Of a stretch of DNA of 64,000 nucleotides, positions 9,028-55,314 are shown in pieces. The notes under the pieces were generated by a model. That model saw only the letters and a program-made list of their open reading frames with translations, did not search any database and had not been told where the DNA came from. The stretch spans positions 7,585-71,584 of the forward strand of contig JBLKOJ010000001.1 in the NCBI GenBank assembly GCA_047602745.1, given 5' to 3'. Position 1 is the stretch's first letter; each line of letters starts with the position of its first letter. The stretch is from Candidatus Woesearchaeota archaeon (GTDB lineage Archaea > Nanobdellota > Nanobdellia > Woesearchaeales > UBA583). The position numbers and the translations under genes are program-made.

Positions 9028-9354
9028 TTACTTTTCTTTAATCCTATTATATATTCTTATTACAAATTCTTTATATTCATGTAAATATAGTTTAACGGCA
9101 TCAATAGTTGATTGTTGAGTTTTTTTTGTACTAACTGCTATAAGTAAAATAATGCAAATATCTTCATAAATCAAAAAATAGACTCTCTTTGAATTAATTT
9201 TTTTCTCTCTAAAATAAGTATAACCTAAAGGTTTTCCTAATTGAGAATTAGTTTTTAAATGTTCAATTAACTTATTTAATTCTTCAAGTTAAATTTTAGA
9301 TAAAATTTTATTTGCATACTTATCAAAATCAGAAACTTTAAAAACTCTATTCAT
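9028..9354 (-). pseudogene. RelE/ParE-family toxin homolog interrupted by one in-frame TAA (9289..9291)
   Basis: Translation is MNRVFKVSDFDKYANKILSKI*LEELNKLIEHLKTNSQLGKPLGYTYFREKKINSKRVYFLIYEDICIILLIAVSTKK.... It fits the RelE fold pattern (..kkI.e.ieeLaenP...G..L.G....YR.iY.i.d..i.il.i.hRk). No antitoxin gene lies upstream. Confidence 0.5.
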
Positions 9355-9362
9355 AATGATAA

Positions 9363-9387
9363 TTTATCATTCAATATATTTAAACTA
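9363..9387. repeat. Degenerate copy of the 31-bp repeat core (TTATCATTCAATATATTTAAACTAG)
   Basis: About 70% identical to the repeat core. On the minus strand its TTTAAATA sits about 22 nt upstream of the RelE-like ATG. Confidence 0.4.
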
Positions 9388-9434: not shown

Positions 9435-9466
9435 AACAAATCATCTCTAATATTTAAACTATTAGT
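9435..9466. repeat. 31-bp direct repeat, copy 3 (one mismatch)
   Basis: AACAAATCATCTCTAATATTTAAACTATTAGT. Shares the ATTAG extension with copy 2. Confidence 0.7.
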
Positions 9467-31068: not shown

Positions 31069-31314
31069 TTATCCATTATAGAGCACCTCTATTTCAGCAA
31101 TAATATTCATAATTTCTGTCCTTGTAAAAGAATCTATTTTAAATATTGAAGTAAATTGTTCCAAATCTTCTTGAATTTTAATTAATTCTTCATCAGTGAG
31201 ATAATCTTTTTTCATTATAGAAATTATTTTTTTTAACTCTTCTTTAGGTTTAAAACTTAAATCTTCAACTAGTGATTCTAATGTTTCAACAAAATATTCA
31301 ATTTCAGTATCCAT
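31069..31314 (-). CDS. Small acidic hypothetical protein (81 aa) in the L37ae-RpoP-Pcc1 operon
   Basis: Overlaps the Pcc1 gene end. Predicted helical and acidic. Confidence 0.35.
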   Translation of the reverse strand: MDTEIEYFVETLESLVEDLSFKPKEELKKIISIMKKDYLTDEELIKIQEDLEQFTSIFKIDSFTRTEIMNIIAEIEVLYNG

Positions 31315-31570
31315 TTTTATTTGTATATATTTGAATTACTTCTTGGGTTTTTCTTATAACTTCACAACTATCATTTATAGCTGTCGTTACAATTTTAAGT
31401 AATTGTGGTGTTTGAGCTTCAATTTCAACAAGAACTTGTGAGTTTACATTGTCAACTGAAATCTCAATACTAATTTGCTTATTCTTAAAATCATAATCTT
31501 CGCTTTTGAGTAGTTCGTATAATTCCTTTGAGTTTTTTGATTTATATCTTAATGTAGCACTACATTTCAT
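31304..31570 (-). CDS. pcc1: KEOPS complex subunit Pcc1-like protein
   Basis: About 88 aa. Pattern ...ATLRYKSKNSKELYELL...ISIEISVDNVNSQVLVEIEAQTPQLLKIVTTAINDS fits the Pcc1 fold. Sits in the conserved archaeal neighbourhood with L37ae and RpoP. Confidence 0.5.
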   Translation of the reverse strand: MKCSATLRYKSKNSKELYELLKSEDYDFKNKQISIEISVDNVNSQVLVEIEAQTPQLLKIVTTAINDSCEVIRKTQEVIQIYTNKNGY

Positions 31571-38338: not shown

Positions 38339-38983
38339 CTATAGTTTAAATAAATAATCTTTAATAATATTAAAATGAAATGTTTGTTTTTCTTTATTTT
38401 CTTCATTAATAGCTGTAATATATTGTTTTTGTATAGATTTGATAGTATATTTAATTCCTTTTATTTGAACTATATCTTTGGGTTTTAAATTATATATTGC
38501 AGCAAGAAGAGAGTGTCTATATAAGTCCTTACCTTTTAGCTTATTTCTTCCCATGATTTTTTTAGAATGCGTAAATATGCAAAAAAAATGTTCATTGATG
38601 ACTCTTTTAAGCTTGTGAATATCATTAATGTTGGCTAAATAGATATCAAACCCATCCAGATTGTCTTCTATTTTATTAATTAATAATTTAACATTTCTTA
38701 AAATATATTTAAGTTTAAAGTATGCTAAATCATACTCTGATATTAATATTTCATTATATTTTATATCTTTGTTAGAATAAATTGTTTGAGTTGCTTTATT
38801 TTCATATAATAAATACGTCTGTTCTATCTCATTTAACTTTTTATTGATATCTTCTTTATTATAAAAATATAATCTAAATTGAACTCTGCATTCATAATAG
38901 TCATCATGCATTTTTTTACTAATTGGAGACATTTTCTGCTCCATTTCTAATTCCACTTGAAATGAATCTTTTATAATAACCAT
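38339..38983 (-). CDS. Hypothetical protein (214 aa) inside the inverted-repeat-bounded segment
   Basis: The only long ORF between the inverted repeats. No Walker motif or other recognised motif. Confidence 0.4.
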   Translation of the reverse strand: MVIIKDSFQVELEMEQKMSPISKKMHDDYYECRVQFRLYFYNKEDINKKLNEIEQTYLLYENKATQTIYSNKDIKYNEILISEYDLAYFKLKYILRNVKLLINKIEDNLDGFDIYLANINDIHKLKRVINEHFFCIFTHSKKIMGRNKLKGKDLYRHSLLAAIYNLKPKDIVQIKGIKYTIKSIQKQYITAINEENKEKQTFHFNIIKDYLFKL

Positions 38984-39284
38984 ATTTATATTTGTACCTT
39001 ATAATTTAAATTATTATTTATTATTTATAAATGATACTACTATTAATAACATTAATTTTTATCTATTAAATTTTTTATAGAGACTATATAAAGCGATATT
39101 ATAAATATGTCATAAGTAATCGTGAAAGAAATTTTACAAATAATATAATAAAATTATTAACATTAAAAAGAACTATAAAAATTTACAACTAATCATTAAT
39201 AATATTTTTATTAATATATTTAACTAATATTAATTTTTAAATTTTAAAGATAAAGTTAAAATCAAGTATTGATACTAACAACTT

Positions 39285-39313
39285 AAATCTAAATCTAAAT
39301 CTAAATCTAATCT
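39285..39313. repeat. Hexanucleotide microsatellite (AAATCT)x4 plus a partial unit
   Basis: Direct tandem repeat read from the sequence. Confidence 0.8.
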
Positions 39314-39399
39314 CAAAATTAAAAAATACTATTAAAAATACTATTGAAAATTTATAACTTAGAAATTTATCATATATATTTTAATATTTTATTTTGTGT

Positions 39400-39720
39400 T
39401 GTTTAATCTATTGTTTATTTAATTTTTTTTGCATTTATTTCAAATTTACTTTTATTTATTATTTTATCATATTTATTTTTATTTAAGTTCTATTTATATA
39501 TTGTATTATATTTGTTTCAATTTTTATTTATATTATACCAATATTTACATTTGAATTCGTACTTCTCTACTTTAAAGTCTATTTTTATTCTCACTTTATT
39601 TTTATATTTTTCTTATCTTTACTTTACTTCTTCCCTTATTATTTTTTAATCATTTATTATTTTTATATTACTTTACACCACATTTACATTCACATATTTA
39701 TTATTTATACTAAAAATAGT
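39400..39720. other. G-depleted, T/C-rich strand-asymmetric tract (about 2% G on the plus strand) with no ORF
   Basis: Manual base inspection finds only about 7 G in 300 nt, against about 10% C and 55% T. Confidence 0.5.
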
Positions 39721-39815
39721 GTTTTAATAATGTATTTATTTCTTTTGCAGATACATATTTGTTTAAATTATATCTAAATTAGTATATACAATTATAAGAC
39801 TATATTTAAGTTTAT

Positions 39816-40055
39816 TTAGACAAAATTTAGACAAGACTTAGAATTAAATCTCATTAATTTAAATTATTAAAATTTTAAAAATTCAACTTTAAAGTCTGAA
39901 TTCCCTACTTAAACTAAGGTTTCAAACAAATTTTAGTTGTTTAATATTACTTGTTTTTAGTTATTTCTAATTGTATATTTTATCATTTTAGACAAGTTTT
40001 AGACAATTATTAAACGAGTTTATTTTTATTTTAGACAAGTTTTAGACAATTATTA
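39816..40055. repeat. Iteron-like direct repeats, six copies of TTAGACAA, including two perfect 27-bp repeats (TTTTAGACAAGTTTTAGACAATTATTA at 39986..40012 and 40029..40055)
   Basis: Exact repeat coordinates read from the sequence. Copies at 39816, 39827, 39988, 39999, 40031 and 40042. Confidence 0.75.
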
Positions 40056-40094
40056 GAATTTTTCATTAAAATAAAACCATAAATTTTGTTTTTT

Positions 40095-40116
40095 GTCATT
40101 TCCAGTAGAAATTAAG
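40095..40116. repeat. Right arm of the inverted repeat (GTCATTTCCAGTAGAAATTAAG)
   Basis: Pairs with 38161..38182. The core TTCCAGTAGAAAT resembles the archaeal mini-ORB core (TTCCAGTGGAAAC) as I remember it. Confidence 0.6.
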
Positions 40117-40511
40117 GTCTTAGTCTTTTGTAAAAAATTTAAGAATTATTATTAAAGATATTATTTTATGAATTTGGTATTAATAAAATTCAAATTGAAA
40201 ATACGTAAGTTTATAAATATACTAATCATATATACATTAATTAGTTATAAGACTCTTTACTTAAGTGTCATATTGATTTGTTTGTGATTGCTATACATAT
40301 CTTTATAGGTAGGTTTAGATGGAAAAATTAAATTTACATGTTAAAAATATTAAATATTACATAAAATTTCAATCAAGTAGTTTATAGTTATTAACTATAG
40401 ATATAAAATGAAATTTGTGTGAGGATTAAGTTTAATTTTTCTAAGTGTATAAATAAAAGTAAACAAATTAAGAATATTAGGTAAAGATTTTTAAGCTTTT
40501 TTTAGGGAAAA

Positions 40512-41138
40512 ATGAAAGAAGTTGAATTAAAAGTTAGAAATATTAACAAGCAAGACATCATTGATAAAATTACTGAAATTGGGGCGGTGAGAGTTTTTAG
40601 CGGGAAAGTTATTGATTTTAGATTTGATACCCCAGATAGAGATTTATCTAGGCAAGGAAAGGCGTTGAGAATTAGGCAAAAAGGCTCATATATATATTTA
40701 AATTTAAAAGGAAAAAAAAAATCTAAGGAGAGTATTATAGGAAGAGATGAAATCGGAGTTAAAATATCTAATTTTAAAACAATGCAGAGAATTTTACATG
40801 AATTAGGCTATATTAAAATTTTTGAACTTGTTAAATATAGAACACAATTTAGGTTTAAAGATATCACTTTTGATATTGATGAATATGCAGGATTAGACCC
40901 CATTTTAGAAATTGAGAGTAATTCATATGAAAAAGTTAGAGAGTATGTGGATTTATTAAACATTCAAGAGGAAGACATAGGAAGAGTATACATTAGAGAA
41001 ATATTGGAGGCTAAGAGAACAATTTCCACAAAAGAATTTTTAGATAGTAAGTATAAAAAAGATAAATATCGATATTCTCCCAAACATTCCAAAATTAAAC
41101 AAGATAAGGAGGAAGATGATTTAGATTGTGATGACTAA
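40512..41138 (+). CDS. CYTH-domain protein (CyaB/thiamine-triphosphatase-like)
   Basis: N-terminal EVELK (ExExK motif), about 200 aa with alternating charged beta-strand pattern and a C-terminal acidic tail. Confidence 0.6.
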   Translation: MKEVELKVRNINKQDIIDKITEIGAVRVFSGKVIDFRFDTPDRDLSRQGKALRIRQKGSYIYLNLKGKKKSKESIIGRDEIGVKISNFKTMQRILHELGYIKIFELVKYRTQFRFKDITFDIDEYAGLDPILEIESNSYEKVREYVDLLNIQEEDIGRVYIREILEAKRTISTKEFLDSKYKKDKYRYSPKHSKIKQDKEEDDLDCDD

Positions 41139-49785: not shown

Positions 49786-50109
49786 TTACTTTGTAATTTT
49801 TTCAAGTTCTTTAAGTAATTTTTTATGAAATTCTGGTGTAATTGAACTAATTTTTTTAATTATTTTTTCTTCTGAGATTGTAAATATTCTATGAGACTTC
49901 ACATAACTTTCATGAGGAAGAGGATTTAGAAGAGAGTTATTATTAATACTAATTGAATTGTGAGATTTTTTACTGGTAACTAACATGCAAATTTTATCAC
50001 CATGTAAGTTTGAATTAGAGATAATTAATGCGGGTCTTACCTTATTTGATGTTAAATCTGAGTATGGAAAAGGTATTAAAATAATATCTCTTTGATTATA
50101 CATATGCAT
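49786..50109 (-). CDS. MazF/PemK-family toxin (type II TA)
   Basis: RDIILIPFPYSDLTSNKVRPALIIS matches the MazF/PemK core (G.i..v.fp...g.e...RPavVvs). Overlaps the upstream small antitoxin-like ORF. Confidence 0.6.
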   Translation of the reverse strand: MHMYNQRDIILIPFPYSDLTSNKVRPALIISNSNLHGDKICMLVTSKKSHNSISINNNSLLNPLPHESYVKSHRIFTISEEKIIKKISSITPEFHKKLLKELEKITK

Positions 50110-50314
50110 TCCACCTTTCATCTTCTTCATTATCCCACTCTGAGTTGAGAATTTCTTCACTGAGTTGAGTTGTTATATGTGATTCTTGTAATGAATCTAG
50201 TTCTTCGATTCGTTTTTCTATTTGTTTTCTAACATACTCACTCCATTTTATTTCTGAGTATTTTTTCATCTTTTTATATGTAGAATTTTTAATTGAGAGA
50301 GTAATATTTGTCAT
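50096..50314 (-). CDS. Putative antitoxin partner of the MazF-like toxin (72 aa, acidic C-terminus)
   Basis: Position immediately upstream and overlapping the toxin. N-terminal TNITLSIKNSTYKKMKK resembles RHH/AbrB-type antitoxins. Confidence 0.4.
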   Translation of the reverse strand: MTNITLSIKNSTYKKMKKYSEIKWSEYVRKQIEKRIEELDSLQESHITTQLSEEILNSEWDNEEDERWNAYV

Positions 50315-52130: not shown

Positions 52131-53672
52131 ATGAATTCAAAAAATACAAAGTTATCAACTTCAGATTTAGCAACTTTTTGTAAAAAGAAAGGGTTCGTAT
52201 TTCAATGTGCTGAAATTTATGGAGGATTTTCAGGTTTTTTTGATTTTGGTCCTTTAGGAGTTGAATTAAAGCAAAATATCAAGCAAGCTTATTGGAAACA
52301 TTTTGTTCATAAACGAGAAGATATAGTGGGACAAGATGGTTCTATAATTACTAATCCTAGTGTTTGGAAAGCCTCAGGTCATGTTGATAATTTTGGAGAT
52401 TTAGTTTTAACAACAAAAGATACTAAGACAAAATTACGAGCAGATCATTTTATTGAAGACACGTTAAATATTCCTGGAGATGCACTAACTGCTGATGATA
52501 TTAATACATTAATAATAGAACATAAACTAACATATAAAGGGGAGGAGTTTGAGGAAGTTAAAGATTTTAATTTGATGTTTCAAACACAAGTAGGGGCTGA
52601 TACTACAAAAAATGCAACAGCGTATTTAAGACCTGAAACAGCTCAGAGTATCTTTCCAAATTTTAAAAGTATCTCAGAGGTTTCAAGATTACAACTACCC
52701 TTTGGAATTACACAAATAGGAAAAGCGTATAGAAATGAAATTTCTCCAAGAGACTTTGTATTTAGATGTAGGGAGTTTGAACAAATAGAAATGGAATATT
52801 TTTTTCATCCTAATTCAGCATGTAGTCAATTAACAAATAAGCATTTAGAGTTGAAATTAAATGTTCTCACAGCAAAAGCGCAAGAAGAAGATTCAGAGGA
52901 GATGACTATGATGACAATTAAAGAATTATTAGAAGAGGATTCATTTAATTTAAATTCATATCATGCATATTTTTTAGCTGATTTTTATATGTGGTTTAGA
53001 AATGTTCTTGGACTTAGTTCTGAGAATATGAGAATTAGGGAGCATACTTCAACTGAGTTATCTCATTATTCAAAAGCTACATTTGATATTGATTACAAAT
53101 ATCCAATGGGTTTTAAGGAGTTGCTTGGAATGGCTAATAGAACTAACTTTGATTTAACTCAACATCAGACTCATTCAAAATCAAAACTTGAAATCTTTGA
53201 TGAAGAGAGTAAATCTAAACTTTTACCTCACGTTATTGAACCTTCTTTTGGAATTGAAAGAGCAATGATGGCAGTAATTATGGAAGCATATAATGATGAT
53301 AAAGTAAGAGGAAATATTGTAATGAAGTTTAAACCACAATTATCTCCTCATAAAGTTGCAGTTCTTCCTTTAATGAATAAAGATTCTCTTCCAATTGTTG
53401 CAAGAGAGATTTTTAATGAATTACTTGAAGAAGATATTGTAGCAGTGTATGATAAGTCGGGTTCTGTGGGTAAACGATATGCAAGAAATGATGAAATTGG
53501 AACTGCATATTGTATCACTATTGATTATGAAACTATTGAAGATGGAGAGAATAAAGATACTGTTACGATTAGAAATCGAGATACGCAAGAGCAGAAAAGA
53601 GTTCACAAAGATAAACTTGTTCAGGTAATTAGAGATTTATTAAAAGAAAAGATTACATTTGAGAAGTTATAG
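52131..53672 (+). CDS. glyS: Glycyl-tRNA synthetase (archaeal/eukaryotic alpha2 type)
   Basis: FQCAEIYGGFSGFFDFGPLG near the N-terminus, class II motifs (FRNEISPRDFVFRCREFEQ.E) and a C-terminal anticodon-binding domain. Confidence 0.88.
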   Translation: MNSKNTKLSTSDLATFCKKKGFVFQCAEIYGGFSGFFDFGPLGVELKQNIKQAYWKHFVHKREDIVGQDGSIITNPSVWKASGHVDNFGDLVLTTKDTKTKLRADHFIEDTLNIPGDALTADDINTLIIEHKLTYKGEEFEEVKDFNLMFQTQVGADTTKNATAYLRPETAQSIFPNFKSISEVSRLQLPFGITQIGKAYRNEISPRDFVFRCREFEQIEMEYFFHPNSACSQLTNKHLELKLNVLTAKAQEEDSEEMTMMTIKELLEEDSFNLNSYHAYFLADFYMWFRNVLGLSSENMRIREHTSTELSHYSKATFDIDYKYPMGFKELLGMANRTNFDLTQHQTHSKSKLEIFDEESKSKLLPHVIEPSFGIERAMMAVIMEAYNDDKVRGNIVMKFKPQLSPHKVAVLPLMNKDSLPIVAREIFNELLEEDIVAVYDKSGSVGKRYARNDEIGTAYCITIDYETIEDGENKDTVTIRNRDTQEQKRVHKDKLVQVIRDLLKEKITFEKL

Positions 53673-53782
53673 TTTCTATTAATTCTTTTTGTTTTTTATA
53701 TAATTTATATTTATTATTTTTATAGTAATTTTCTACTCCTCTTCAACTTAATATTTATAAATTAGTAATTTATATATGTAGT

Positions 53783-54019
53783 ATGCCTATTGTTATTCGA
53801 TGTCTGCATTGTCAAGAGTTTCAAATGTCTACTGCTCAAAAAATTGTGAAGTGTATCAAATGTTATAAATCAATGCAAAAAGAAAATTTGAAAATATTTT
53901 TTCAAAGTGATTCTCCTCAAGCTTGCACAGAAGTTGTAAAACGATTAAAAGAGGAGTATTTTAGAGTTCATGGAAATTATGGAGAGGATGATTTTTTCAC
54001 ATATGAATTGAATAAGTAA
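53783..54019 (+). CDS. Small zinc-ribbon protein (CxxC...CxxC)
   Basis: RCLHCQEF...KCIKCYKS. Confidence 0.35.
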   Translation: MPIVIRCLHCQEFQMSTAQKIVKCIKCYKSMQKENLKIFFQSDSPQACTEVVKRLKEEYFRVHGNYGEDDFFTYELNK

Positions 54020-54080
54020 CATAACTTTTCATAAATCAGTAAAAGAAATATTTATATATATTGATACCATTTACTATCAT

Positions 54081-54317
54081 ATGGGATATCAAGTAAATGT
54101 TCGACTCTCAGAAGAGATGAAACAAAGAGCAGAGGAGTATGCAAAAGAGTATGGTTTTTCAAACATTCAAGAAGTGATTAAAAATAGTTTGAGAAAAGAA
54201 TTATATGAACAATATTCGTATGATGATATTAAAAAAGTTGAAGAATTTGAATCTTTTTGTGATACACATGATTTGTATGCATCTGAGGAGGAGTTATTTG
54301 ATATATTGAAAAAATGA
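54081..54317 (+). CDS. Ribbon-helix-helix (CopG/ParD-like) antitoxin
   Basis: YQVNVRLSEEMKQRAEEYAKEYGFSNIQEVIKNSLRKEL is the classic RHH pattern. The stop overlaps the toxin ATG (ATGA). Confidence 0.5.
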   Translation: MGYQVNVRLSEEMKQRAEEYAKEYGFSNIQEVIKNSLRKELYEQYSYDDIKKVEEFESFCDTHDLYASEEELFDILKK

Positions 54318-54619
54318 AGTTTAAAATTAAGTTTACTTTTTTTATTAAAAATCAATTAGAGGAGCTTCATATAAAAACAAGAAAATCATTAGTATCTAAA
54401 ATTTAATTACTCAAAGAAAATCCTTTTAGAAATAAATCGTTAATCAGTCATAAGCATTTATTTAGAATTAGATTTATTGATATTAATATTGAGAAGCGAT
54501 TAATTTATGCAGTAAGAGGAGAGGAAGTAAAGTTATTATTTATTTTAAATAGAAAGAAAAATTATAAAGATTTAGACGTCTACATGAAAAAGATAAAAGA
54601 AGAATTTAAGGGGAAGTAA
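54314..54619 (+). pseudogene. RelE/ParE-family toxin homolog with one in-frame TAA (54404..54406)
   Basis: Translation MKFKIKFTFFIKNQLEELHIKTRKSLVSKI*LLKENPFRNKSLISHKHLFRIRFIDINIEKRLIYAVRGEEVKLLFILNRKKNY.... The stop sits at the same relative position (SKI*L) as in the paralog at 9028..9354. Confidence 0.5.
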
Positions 54620-54657: not shown

Positions 54658-55314
54658 ATGAATAATGAAGAGATAATTAGTAAAACTGTTGATTTTGTAA
54701 AAAATTCTTTGGAACATGCAGAGGGTGGACATGATTGGTGGCATGTATACAGAATTTGGAAGCTATTAAAAATTCTTGCTCAAAAAGAAGGAGTTGAGAA
54801 TATGCTTATTATTGAACTAGGAGCATTACTTCATGATATTGCTGATTCTAAATTCCATGAGGGAGATGAAGAAGTTGGCCCAAAAATAGCAAGAGAATTT
54901 TTAGAGTCTTTAAGTTTAGAAGAAGATATAATTTATCATATTGAATTAATTATAAAAAATATTTCATTTAAAGGTGGAAATCATACTCAAAATTTTTCAT
55001 CTCCTGAACTTGATATTATTCAAGATGCAGATAGACTTGATGCTCTTGGTGCTATTGGAATTGCAAGAACATTTAACTATGGGGGATTTAAGCAGAGAAA
55101 GCTTTATGACCCTAATATTAAATCTAATTTAAATATGACAAAAGAGGAGTATAAAAAAAGTACTGCTCCTACTATTAATCATTTTTATGAAAAACTTTTA
55201 CTTCTTAAAGATAAAATGAATACACAAAGTGGAAAACAAATGGCTCAAAGAAGACATGAATTTATGGAAGAATATTTAGAGCAATTTTATCAAGAATGGG
55301 AAGGAGAATTATAA
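54658..55314 (+). CDS. HD-domain metal-dependent phosphohydrolase
   Basis: H...HD motif (WWHVYRI...ALLHDIADSKF) and a downstream D (DADRLDALG). Confidence 0.75.
   Translation: MNNEEIISKTVDFVKNSLEHAEGGHDWWHVYRIWKLLKILAQKEGVENMLIIELGALLHDIADSKFHEGDEEVGPKIAREFLESLSLEEDIIYHIELIIKNISFKGGNHTQNFSSPELDIIQDADRLDALGAIGIARTFNYGGFKQRKLYDPNIKSNLNMTKEEYKKSTAPTINHFYEKLLLLKDKMNTQSGKQMAQRRHEFMEEYLEQFYQEWEGEL

Follow-up and report, generated by a model that had tools for sequence, protein, structure and literature searches.

At positions 54081 to 54619 of the window (by which we mean the whole 64,000-nucleotide stretch of DNA analysed), an antitoxin gene is followed on the + strand by a toxin gene whose reading frame is broken. 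The antitoxin ORF runs from an ATG at 54081 to a TGA at 54315-54317 and encodes 78 amino acids. The toxin ATG, at 54314-54316, overlaps this TGA by 4 nt (ATGA), and the toxin frame, 54314-54619, comprises 101 codons: 30 codons, a TAA at 54404-54406, and 70 open codons that end at a second TAA (54617-54619). The coordinates, the 78-aa ORF, the overlap of stop and ATG, and the TAA at 54404-54406 after 30 codons had all been given in an earlier note on this DNA, and all are correct. The features of the locus are as follows.

54049..54066, + strand: A/T-rich TATA-like element (TATTTATATATATTGATA), ca. 25 nt 5' of the antitoxin ATG
54068..54099, + strand: inverted repeat (CATTTACT / AGTAAATG; 8 nt, 100% complementary, 16-nt spacer) spanning the antitoxin start
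54081..54317, + strand: intact antitoxin gene, 78 aa, with an RHH-like N-terminus (VNVRLSEEMKQRAEEYAKEYGFSNIQEVIKNSLRKEL); a homologue lies upstream of the toxin in 20/21 DPANN loci
54314..54403, + strand: N-terminal 30 codons of the toxin, its sole translatable part; of the RelE fold, they encode strand 1, helix 1 and the greater part of helix 2
54373..54377, + strand: A5 run within the toxin, A6 in strain L008
54404..54406, + strand: in-frame TAA, codon 31 of 101; CAA (Gln) in L001, L002, L005 and L008, Glu in P0003 and P0004
54407..54619, + strand: untranslated toxin remnant, covering the three-stranded sheet and the C-terminal helix, with predicted catalytic R51, R53, R62, R80 and Y84

The chance of 70 codons staying open at 26.9% GC, computed from the window composition, is ca. 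0.002. When the family profile was compared with the two toxin halves, both matched in the same frame (E=2.4e-6 for the N-terminal and E=2e-25 for the C-terminal half). Because both halves fit the profile in-frame, we conclude that the locus holds one gene interrupted by one stop and not two ORFs. No in-frame ATG, GTG or TTG is present over the 59 codons that follow the stop, which excludes re-initiation past the TAA. Frameshifting or hopping was also excluded, since the protein is encoded in the same frame on either side of the stop.

The window toxin, read through the stop, gave no Pfam or NCBIfam match at E<=1. Its family was assembled from 47 full-length homologues of ca. 100 aa; those with an organism name are all from Nanoarchaeota or Pacearchaeota, and some carry the JGI label RelE. 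Pfam matches at E<=0.01 were obtained with Gp49 for 17 of the 47 homologues, with ParE-like_toxin for 12, and with ParE_toxin for eight. These matches to Gp49/HigB-like and ParE-like families (PF05973, PF15781 and PF05016) are sub-threshold to moderate, and none of the three matches either the window protein or its closest relatives. The gene order, antitoxin followed by toxin, is unlike that of HigBA. A search of the PDB with the family profile recovered E. coli RelE over its full length (E=0.008). In this alignment, the family residues F50-R51-I52-R53-F54 correspond to Y-K52-I-K54-L of E. coli RelE, and the invariant R62 corresponds to R61; the near-invariant R80 and Y84 (C-terminal 'LxR..xY') were paired by inspection, and hence tentatively, with RelE R81 and Y87. 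The RelE-type catalytic residues (K52, K54, R61, R81 and Y87 in E. coli) therefore have counterparts in the family, and in the window all of them lie 3' of the stop.

An AF2 model of P0001, an intact orthologue 96% identical to the window toxin, has a pLDDT of 86, a pTM of 0.74, and the topology beta-alpha-alpha-beta-beta-beta-alpha. The top PDB matches of this model in Foldseek were 9g12 (M. tuberculosis RelE1), 4fxe (E. coli RelE; TM to target 0.81, rmsd 1.6 A) and 3g5o (RelE2), followed by T. thermophilus RelE, HP0894, HigB2, an archaeal RelE and ParE2 (ids include 2khe and 1wmi); all of the top matches are RelE, HigB or ParE proteins. The description of the toxin as RelE-like in the earlier note is thus right at the level of the fold. 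The conserved pattern of Arg and Tyr residues fits RelE better than ParE-type gyrase poisoning, and the activity of an intact toxin of this family is presumed to be that of a ribosome-dependent mRNA endonuclease. The locus resembles known RelBE modules (E. coli, 4fxe; M. tuberculosis RelBE1, 9g12, and RelBE2, 3g5o; P. horikoshii aRelBE, 1wmi; M. jannaschii, 3bpq) in that the antitoxin precedes the toxin and the genes overlap. The toxin also shares the fold of the RelE structures, with TM scores, normalised to the target, of 0.75-0.81 and rmsd of 1.6-2.2 A. It differs from the known RelBE toxins in its sequence, which is just ca. 20% identical, and in being truncated in the window genome. What appears new is a family, conserved across Nanoarchaeota, Woesearchaeota and Pacearchaeota, that pairs an RHH-like antitoxin with a RelE-fold toxin and escapes Pfam and NCBIfam thresholds; judged by the homologues found, the RelE/RHH family seems to be restricted to DPANN.

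In close relatives, the syntenic order is GlyRS, a DUF5817-like gene, antitoxin, toxin, HD or NUDIX, and ProRS, and these relatives encode an intact toxin of 101-105 aa with CAA at codon 31. DNA alignment at the site of the TAA revealed CAA in L001 (96% amino acid identity) and in L002 and L005 (91%), while L003, L004, L006 and L007 encode one identical intact toxin, P0002. Codon 31 specifies a variable position of helix 2, occupied by Q, E, L, Y, N, D, G or K across the 47 homologues. GTDB DPANN loci were found with a 4-sequence toxin alignment; all 21 encode an intact toxin (94-102 aa), and a homologous antitoxin ORF of ca. 85 aa lies upstream in 20 of them, with the 4-nt overlap in 18. The antitoxin-toxin pairing is likewise present in L001 to L008. 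The in-frame TAA, on the other hand, was absent from L001-L008, from the 21 GTDB loci and from the 47 database homologues. The TAA arose by a single C-to-T transition at 54404 (CAA to TAA).

These comparisons bear on three further statements of the earlier note. Conservation of the arrangement in relatives, which it had named as a point to check, holds for the toxin-antitoxin pair (20/21 GTDB loci) but not for the TAA, which is found in none. Its view that the interrupted RelE is a recurrent, functional pattern is left without support, the TAA being missing from every relative examined. It had also taken the intact operonic context as an argument for function; a single recent base change leaves the operon whole, so that the context provides no such argument.

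Strain L008 has CAA at codon 31 but contains one additional A in the A5 run, 27 nt upstream, so that its toxin ends at 28 aa. As read from its sequence, this frameshift is a separate knock-out of the same toxin gene. The L008 lesion also bears on whether the 30-aa N-terminal peptide could have a function of its own, for example in binding the antitoxin or as a regulator. Through the ATGA overlap, translation of such a peptide would still be coupled to that of the antitoxin. Of the fold, however, it would comprise no more than strand 1, helix 1 and a portion of helix 2, it is kept as a separate product in no relative, and the L008 product is a different, frameshifted 28-aa peptide; we consider a functional peptide highly improbable.

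The neighbourhood of the pair differs from strain to strain. In L002-L007, a DNA methylase gene and a 339-aa gene, likely a restriction-modification pair, are inserted between GlyRS and the DUF5817-like gene (window 53672-53783), and in L001 and L008 a second NUDIX gene (149 aa) takes the place of the window HD-domain gene (54658-55314). Given these strain-variable neighbours, the pair lies within a small accessory-gene hotspot. Just 5' of it, at 53783-54019 (+ strand), a 78-aa Cys-rich protein (CxxC…CxxC) with weak DUF5817, MRNIP and zinc-ribbon matches is encoded, and this gene adjoins the pair in all close relatives. At one GTDB Woesearchaeota locus (L030, 1542-1805), an intact toxin is preceded by an ORF whose translation is aberrant and rich in Arg/Lys, which suggests either a frameshifted antitoxin or an assembly error; in the former case, it would be a rare instance of a damaged antitoxin next to an intact toxin.

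The TAA allele was also sought outside the window. The 30-aa product is not on record, and scans for the exact DNA pattern in GTDB genomes and JGI metagenomes gave none. The contigs retrieved by means of flanking window proteins end short of the TAA site; exact copies of the antitoxin, HD and NUDIX proteins are also encoded on three contigs of 20-50 kb. That no independent contig with the TAA allele was retrieved would be expected if the stop were a minority variant, or had been introduced during assembly or consensus building, and the organism in fact carried CAA (and GAA in the second toxin gene described below). The window looks metagenome-derived, and related strains share samples (L001 and L008 are both from ERZ27301260), so a consensus could mix alleles. 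Substitution errors are, however, rare in short-read consensus sequences, and it would be a strange coincidence for two independent errors each to create a TAA inside a toxin gene. L008 shows, moreover, that real toxin-disrupting alleles circulate in the population. We therefore regard an artefact as quite unlikely.

The antitoxin gene and the sequences upstream of it appear undamaged. The antitoxin protein is 100% identical in L008, and comparison with L014 revealed 18 synonymous and eight non-synonymous codon differences. The best PDB matches of the antitoxin profile were the RHH domains of NikR (E=0.022) and HicB3 (E=0.024), over the N-terminal 45 residues, and the Pfam matches (DUF6290, CopG_antitoxin, Arc, RHH_1 and RHH_5) were all sub-threshold. 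A single-sequence AF2 model was poor (pLDDT 64.5), with residues 1-10 lacking regular secondary structure and helices at 11-24 and 29-44. Of the canonical type II module with an RHH antitoxin that had been proposed for this locus, the toxin-antitoxin operon stands, and the pair is kept across DPANN; the RHH likeness is weak by profile (E ca. 0.02). An RHH-like N-terminus is found in E. coli RelB as well. To our knowledge, none of the archaeal aRelB antitoxins of known structure is RHH; the window antitoxin, by contrast, looks RHH-like.

Upstream of the antitoxin, the block TTTATATAT...TTGATACCATTTACTATCATATGG is kept in L001, L002, L008 and the more distant L014, and the TATA-like element is a candidate archaeal promoter for a leaderless transcript. 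The inverted repeat, kept in close relatives and with one mismatch in L014, is a possible operator for RHH autorepression, and the antitoxin is probably an autorepressor.

A second interrupted toxin gene is present in the window, and was described in the earlier note as an orphan paralog with the same in-frame TAA.

9028..9354, - strand: second ParE/RelE-like toxin gene, TAA at codon 22 (9291-9289); GAA (Glu) in L009 and L012

In relatives of this toxin (92% identity), the 108-aa ORF is intact and the codon at the stop position is GAA. No antitoxin is encoded upstream of the gene (9354-9028); a 41-aa ORF is convergent with it. In relative L009, the second toxin adjoins an AAA_14/DUF4143 ATPase instead. 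Its family gives weak matches to ParE models. BLASTP of the focal toxin against the second toxin was not significant, and hhalign of the two families gave a probability of 54% (E=1.3e-4), values at odds with close paralogy; to judge from these alignments, the two toxins belong to the same superfamily but to different, remotely related families. In the hhalign alignment, focal Q31 is paired with G31 of the second toxin, and E22 of the second toxin with focal T22, which places the stops nine codons apart.

The two stops share their immediate context. The 12-mer TCTAAAATTTAA is found at both stops and nowhere else in the window, so the codon is indeed the same, as had been noted, and its 12-nt setting is identical too; the positions, codon 31 and codon 22, are non-homologous. 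In place of the 12-mer, relatives have TCTAAAATTCAA at the focal site and TCTAAGATTGAA at the second-toxin site, and 10 of its 12 bases are already common to intact relatives at both sites (Ser-Lys-Ile-Gln/Glu in AT-biased codons). The shared 12-mer would therefore be explained as a convergent coincidence, and the idea of a recoding signal common to both stops was rejected on the strength of the relatives' sequences. Two bases of the second toxin gene, separated by 4 nt, depart from those of its relatives, each toward the focal sequence. Short-patch gene conversion between the loci was judged unsupported: the flanking identity is ca. 7 nt, and with a divergence of ca. 5% a second difference nearby is unremarkable.

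The second toxin gene lies among direct repeats. A repeat of 29-45 nt, AAATCATCTCYAATATTTAAACTATTAGT, occurs three times on the + strand (7894-7922, 8802-8830 and 9438-9466), with a degenerate copy at 9359-9387, where none is expected by chance. The repeats flank small units, namely a 253-aa gene (7985-8746) and then the 41-aa ORF with the interrupted second toxin. They could be shared promoter or regulatory elements, or cassette boundaries.

Programmed or tolerated low-level readthrough of the TAA would yield a trickle of full-length toxin and leave an attenuated but functional module. As in programmed readthrough, conserved coding sequence continues in frame past an in-frame stop: the 70 codons past the stop are open and fully conserved, in an operon that is intact. 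After any very recent mutation, however, the downstream frame is expected to be open, and the stop, unlike a programmed one, is not conserved among orthologues, being found in no relative. Functional stops would also account for the non-random finding that two of ca. 65 genes are interrupted and both encode RelE-fold toxins, with the same 12-nt context at each stop. That context is convergent, given that relatives have AAG-ATT-GAA versus AAA-ATT-CAA. A weak RNA fold is predicted 3' of the focal stop, but at -13.4 kcal/mol (z=-1.85; seven of 200 shuffles fold as well) it is not significant. TAA is, in addition, the main terminator in the window, where it ends 44 of 56 (79%) long ORFs, the end of the toxin itself included. 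Readthrough is accordingly very unlikely.

The same count argues against decoding of TAA in this lineage as Gln or some other amino acid, whether by reassignment or by a suppressor tRNA. Reassignment of TAA to Gln is known in some eukaryotes, and the closest relatives have Gln (CAA) exactly at the site of the TAA. With 44 of 56 ORFs ending in TAA, however, genome-wide reassignment is rejected, and a scan of the window for ORF-stop-ORF arrangements flagged no other clear interrupted gene with an in-frame TAA (two other flagged cases were examined). At the second-toxin site, relatives have Glu and not Gln. No suppressor tRNA was found in the window, the only tRNAs there being tRNA-His and tRNA-Ser. 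We regard decoding of the TAA by either route as extremely improbable. Neither recoding nor readthrough nor a new regulatory device is indicated by the two unrelated point mutations, and both toxin genes should be annotated as pseudogenes.

Taken together, the data make it highly probable that the locus is a RelBE-type module whose toxin was recently killed by a single nonsense mutation, that decay began with the toxin, and that the second toxin was hit independently. The ancestral state would be a chromosomal type II operon of a DPANN (Nanoarchaeota-like) archaeon, with an RHH-like antitoxin, a 4-nt ATGA overlap and a RelE-fold toxin. The C-to-T change would have turned codon 31 from CAA (Gln) into TAA, so that translation would end after 30 residues. 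As the beta-sheet and all predicted catalytic residues lie beyond the stop, and no restart codon is available, no active RelE-type nuclease should be made. The toxin would be a fresh pseudogene, with the antitoxin, putative promoter and operon layout untouched, and the antitoxin would still be made from the conserved putative promoter. The second toxin (9354-9028) would have been inactivated separately, at a different position, by a G-to-T change (GAA to TAA). Such decay would be eased in a genome of 27% GC in which ca. 30% of sense codons are one mutation from TAA (29.6% in the window). The gene structure, the fold, the conservation, the ancestral codons and the independence of the events are the directly supported parts of this account; from them we infer the loss of toxicity, continued expression of the antitoxin, and a selective cause, either relaxed selection or selection against the toxin.

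The findings agree with those expected of a decaying module. Orthologues are intact in close relatives, the lesions are independent (nonsense in the window, +1 frameshift in L008), and the antitoxin protein is identical in both. The remnant 3' of the stop has undergone no further decay, which is expected if the mutation is very recent but does not discriminate between explanations. Since both RelE-fold genes are broken and L008 carries a different lesion, the toxins appear to be dispensable or costly in the lineage. The clustering of lesions in RelE-fold toxins (two of ca. 65 genes) fits relaxed or negative selection on toxins.

A stronger version holds that the knock-outs were selected: the lineage would be actively shedding RelE-fold toxins while retaining the antitoxin for 'anti-addiction' or for immunity when homologous toxins come in from outside, or else trace readthrough of the TAA would keep an attenuated toxin. 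The argument for selected loss is that two genes are broken in one genome and that a third, independent lesion is present in a sister strain. We consider this version unlikely; if true, selected loss or trace readthrough would amount to natural, adaptive remodelling of a toxin-antitoxin module in an obligate episymbiont.

Loss does not extend to all toxins of the genome, as an intact PemK/MazF toxin is present in the window. A 72-aa ORF (50096-50314, - strand) lies ahead of this PemK/MazF-like gene (49786-50160, - strand; Pfam E=8e-13) and overlaps its annotated GTG start, and the pair is probably an intact MazEF-type module. Two co-directional small ORFs of 88 and 81 aa (31304-31570 and 31069-31314, both - strand), with an 11-nt overlap and no Pfam match, also have a toxin-antitoxin-like layout. 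In the intergenic gap 5336-5639, a 75-codon open frame (5377-5604, - strand) lacks ATG, GTG and TTG, is preceded by a TAA, and has a protein-like translation (…KKWKEIANCEFELITSKYNFYITFDKSSKIWVLDVFDEK…); it could be due to chance (ca. 14 such segments are expected in the window) or be another damaged small gene. A 1.5-kb ORF-free stretch of ca. 18% GC (38983-40512) lies exactly at the GC-skew sign change and contains clustered TTTAGACAA(G) repeats (ca. 39815-39835, 39987-40010 and 40030-40055). This makes the stretch a candidate replication origin, with repeats that resemble iterons or ORBs.

Decay that begins with the toxin has been described for bacterial chromosomal modules, in which nonsense mutations accumulate and the toxin is lost before the antitoxin (PMC7167474; PMC13617665). 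Examples are the pseudogenisation of the toxin of ccdO157 in E. coli, reported by Mine et al. 2009 as cited in PMC7167474, and the comparable erosion of toxin-antitoxin modules in Photorhabdus (PMC13617665). The module analysed here differs from these in that it belongs to a DPANN archaeon and not to bacteria, and in that it is known from a handful of strains. It resembles them in the main respects: the toxin is broken first, by nonsense or frameshift mutation, the antitoxin is intact, the lesions differ from strain to strain, and the position of the module is conserved although its neighbourhood varies locally. The locus would thus be a small, natural DPANN example of toxin-first decay, a process so far described mainly in bacteria.
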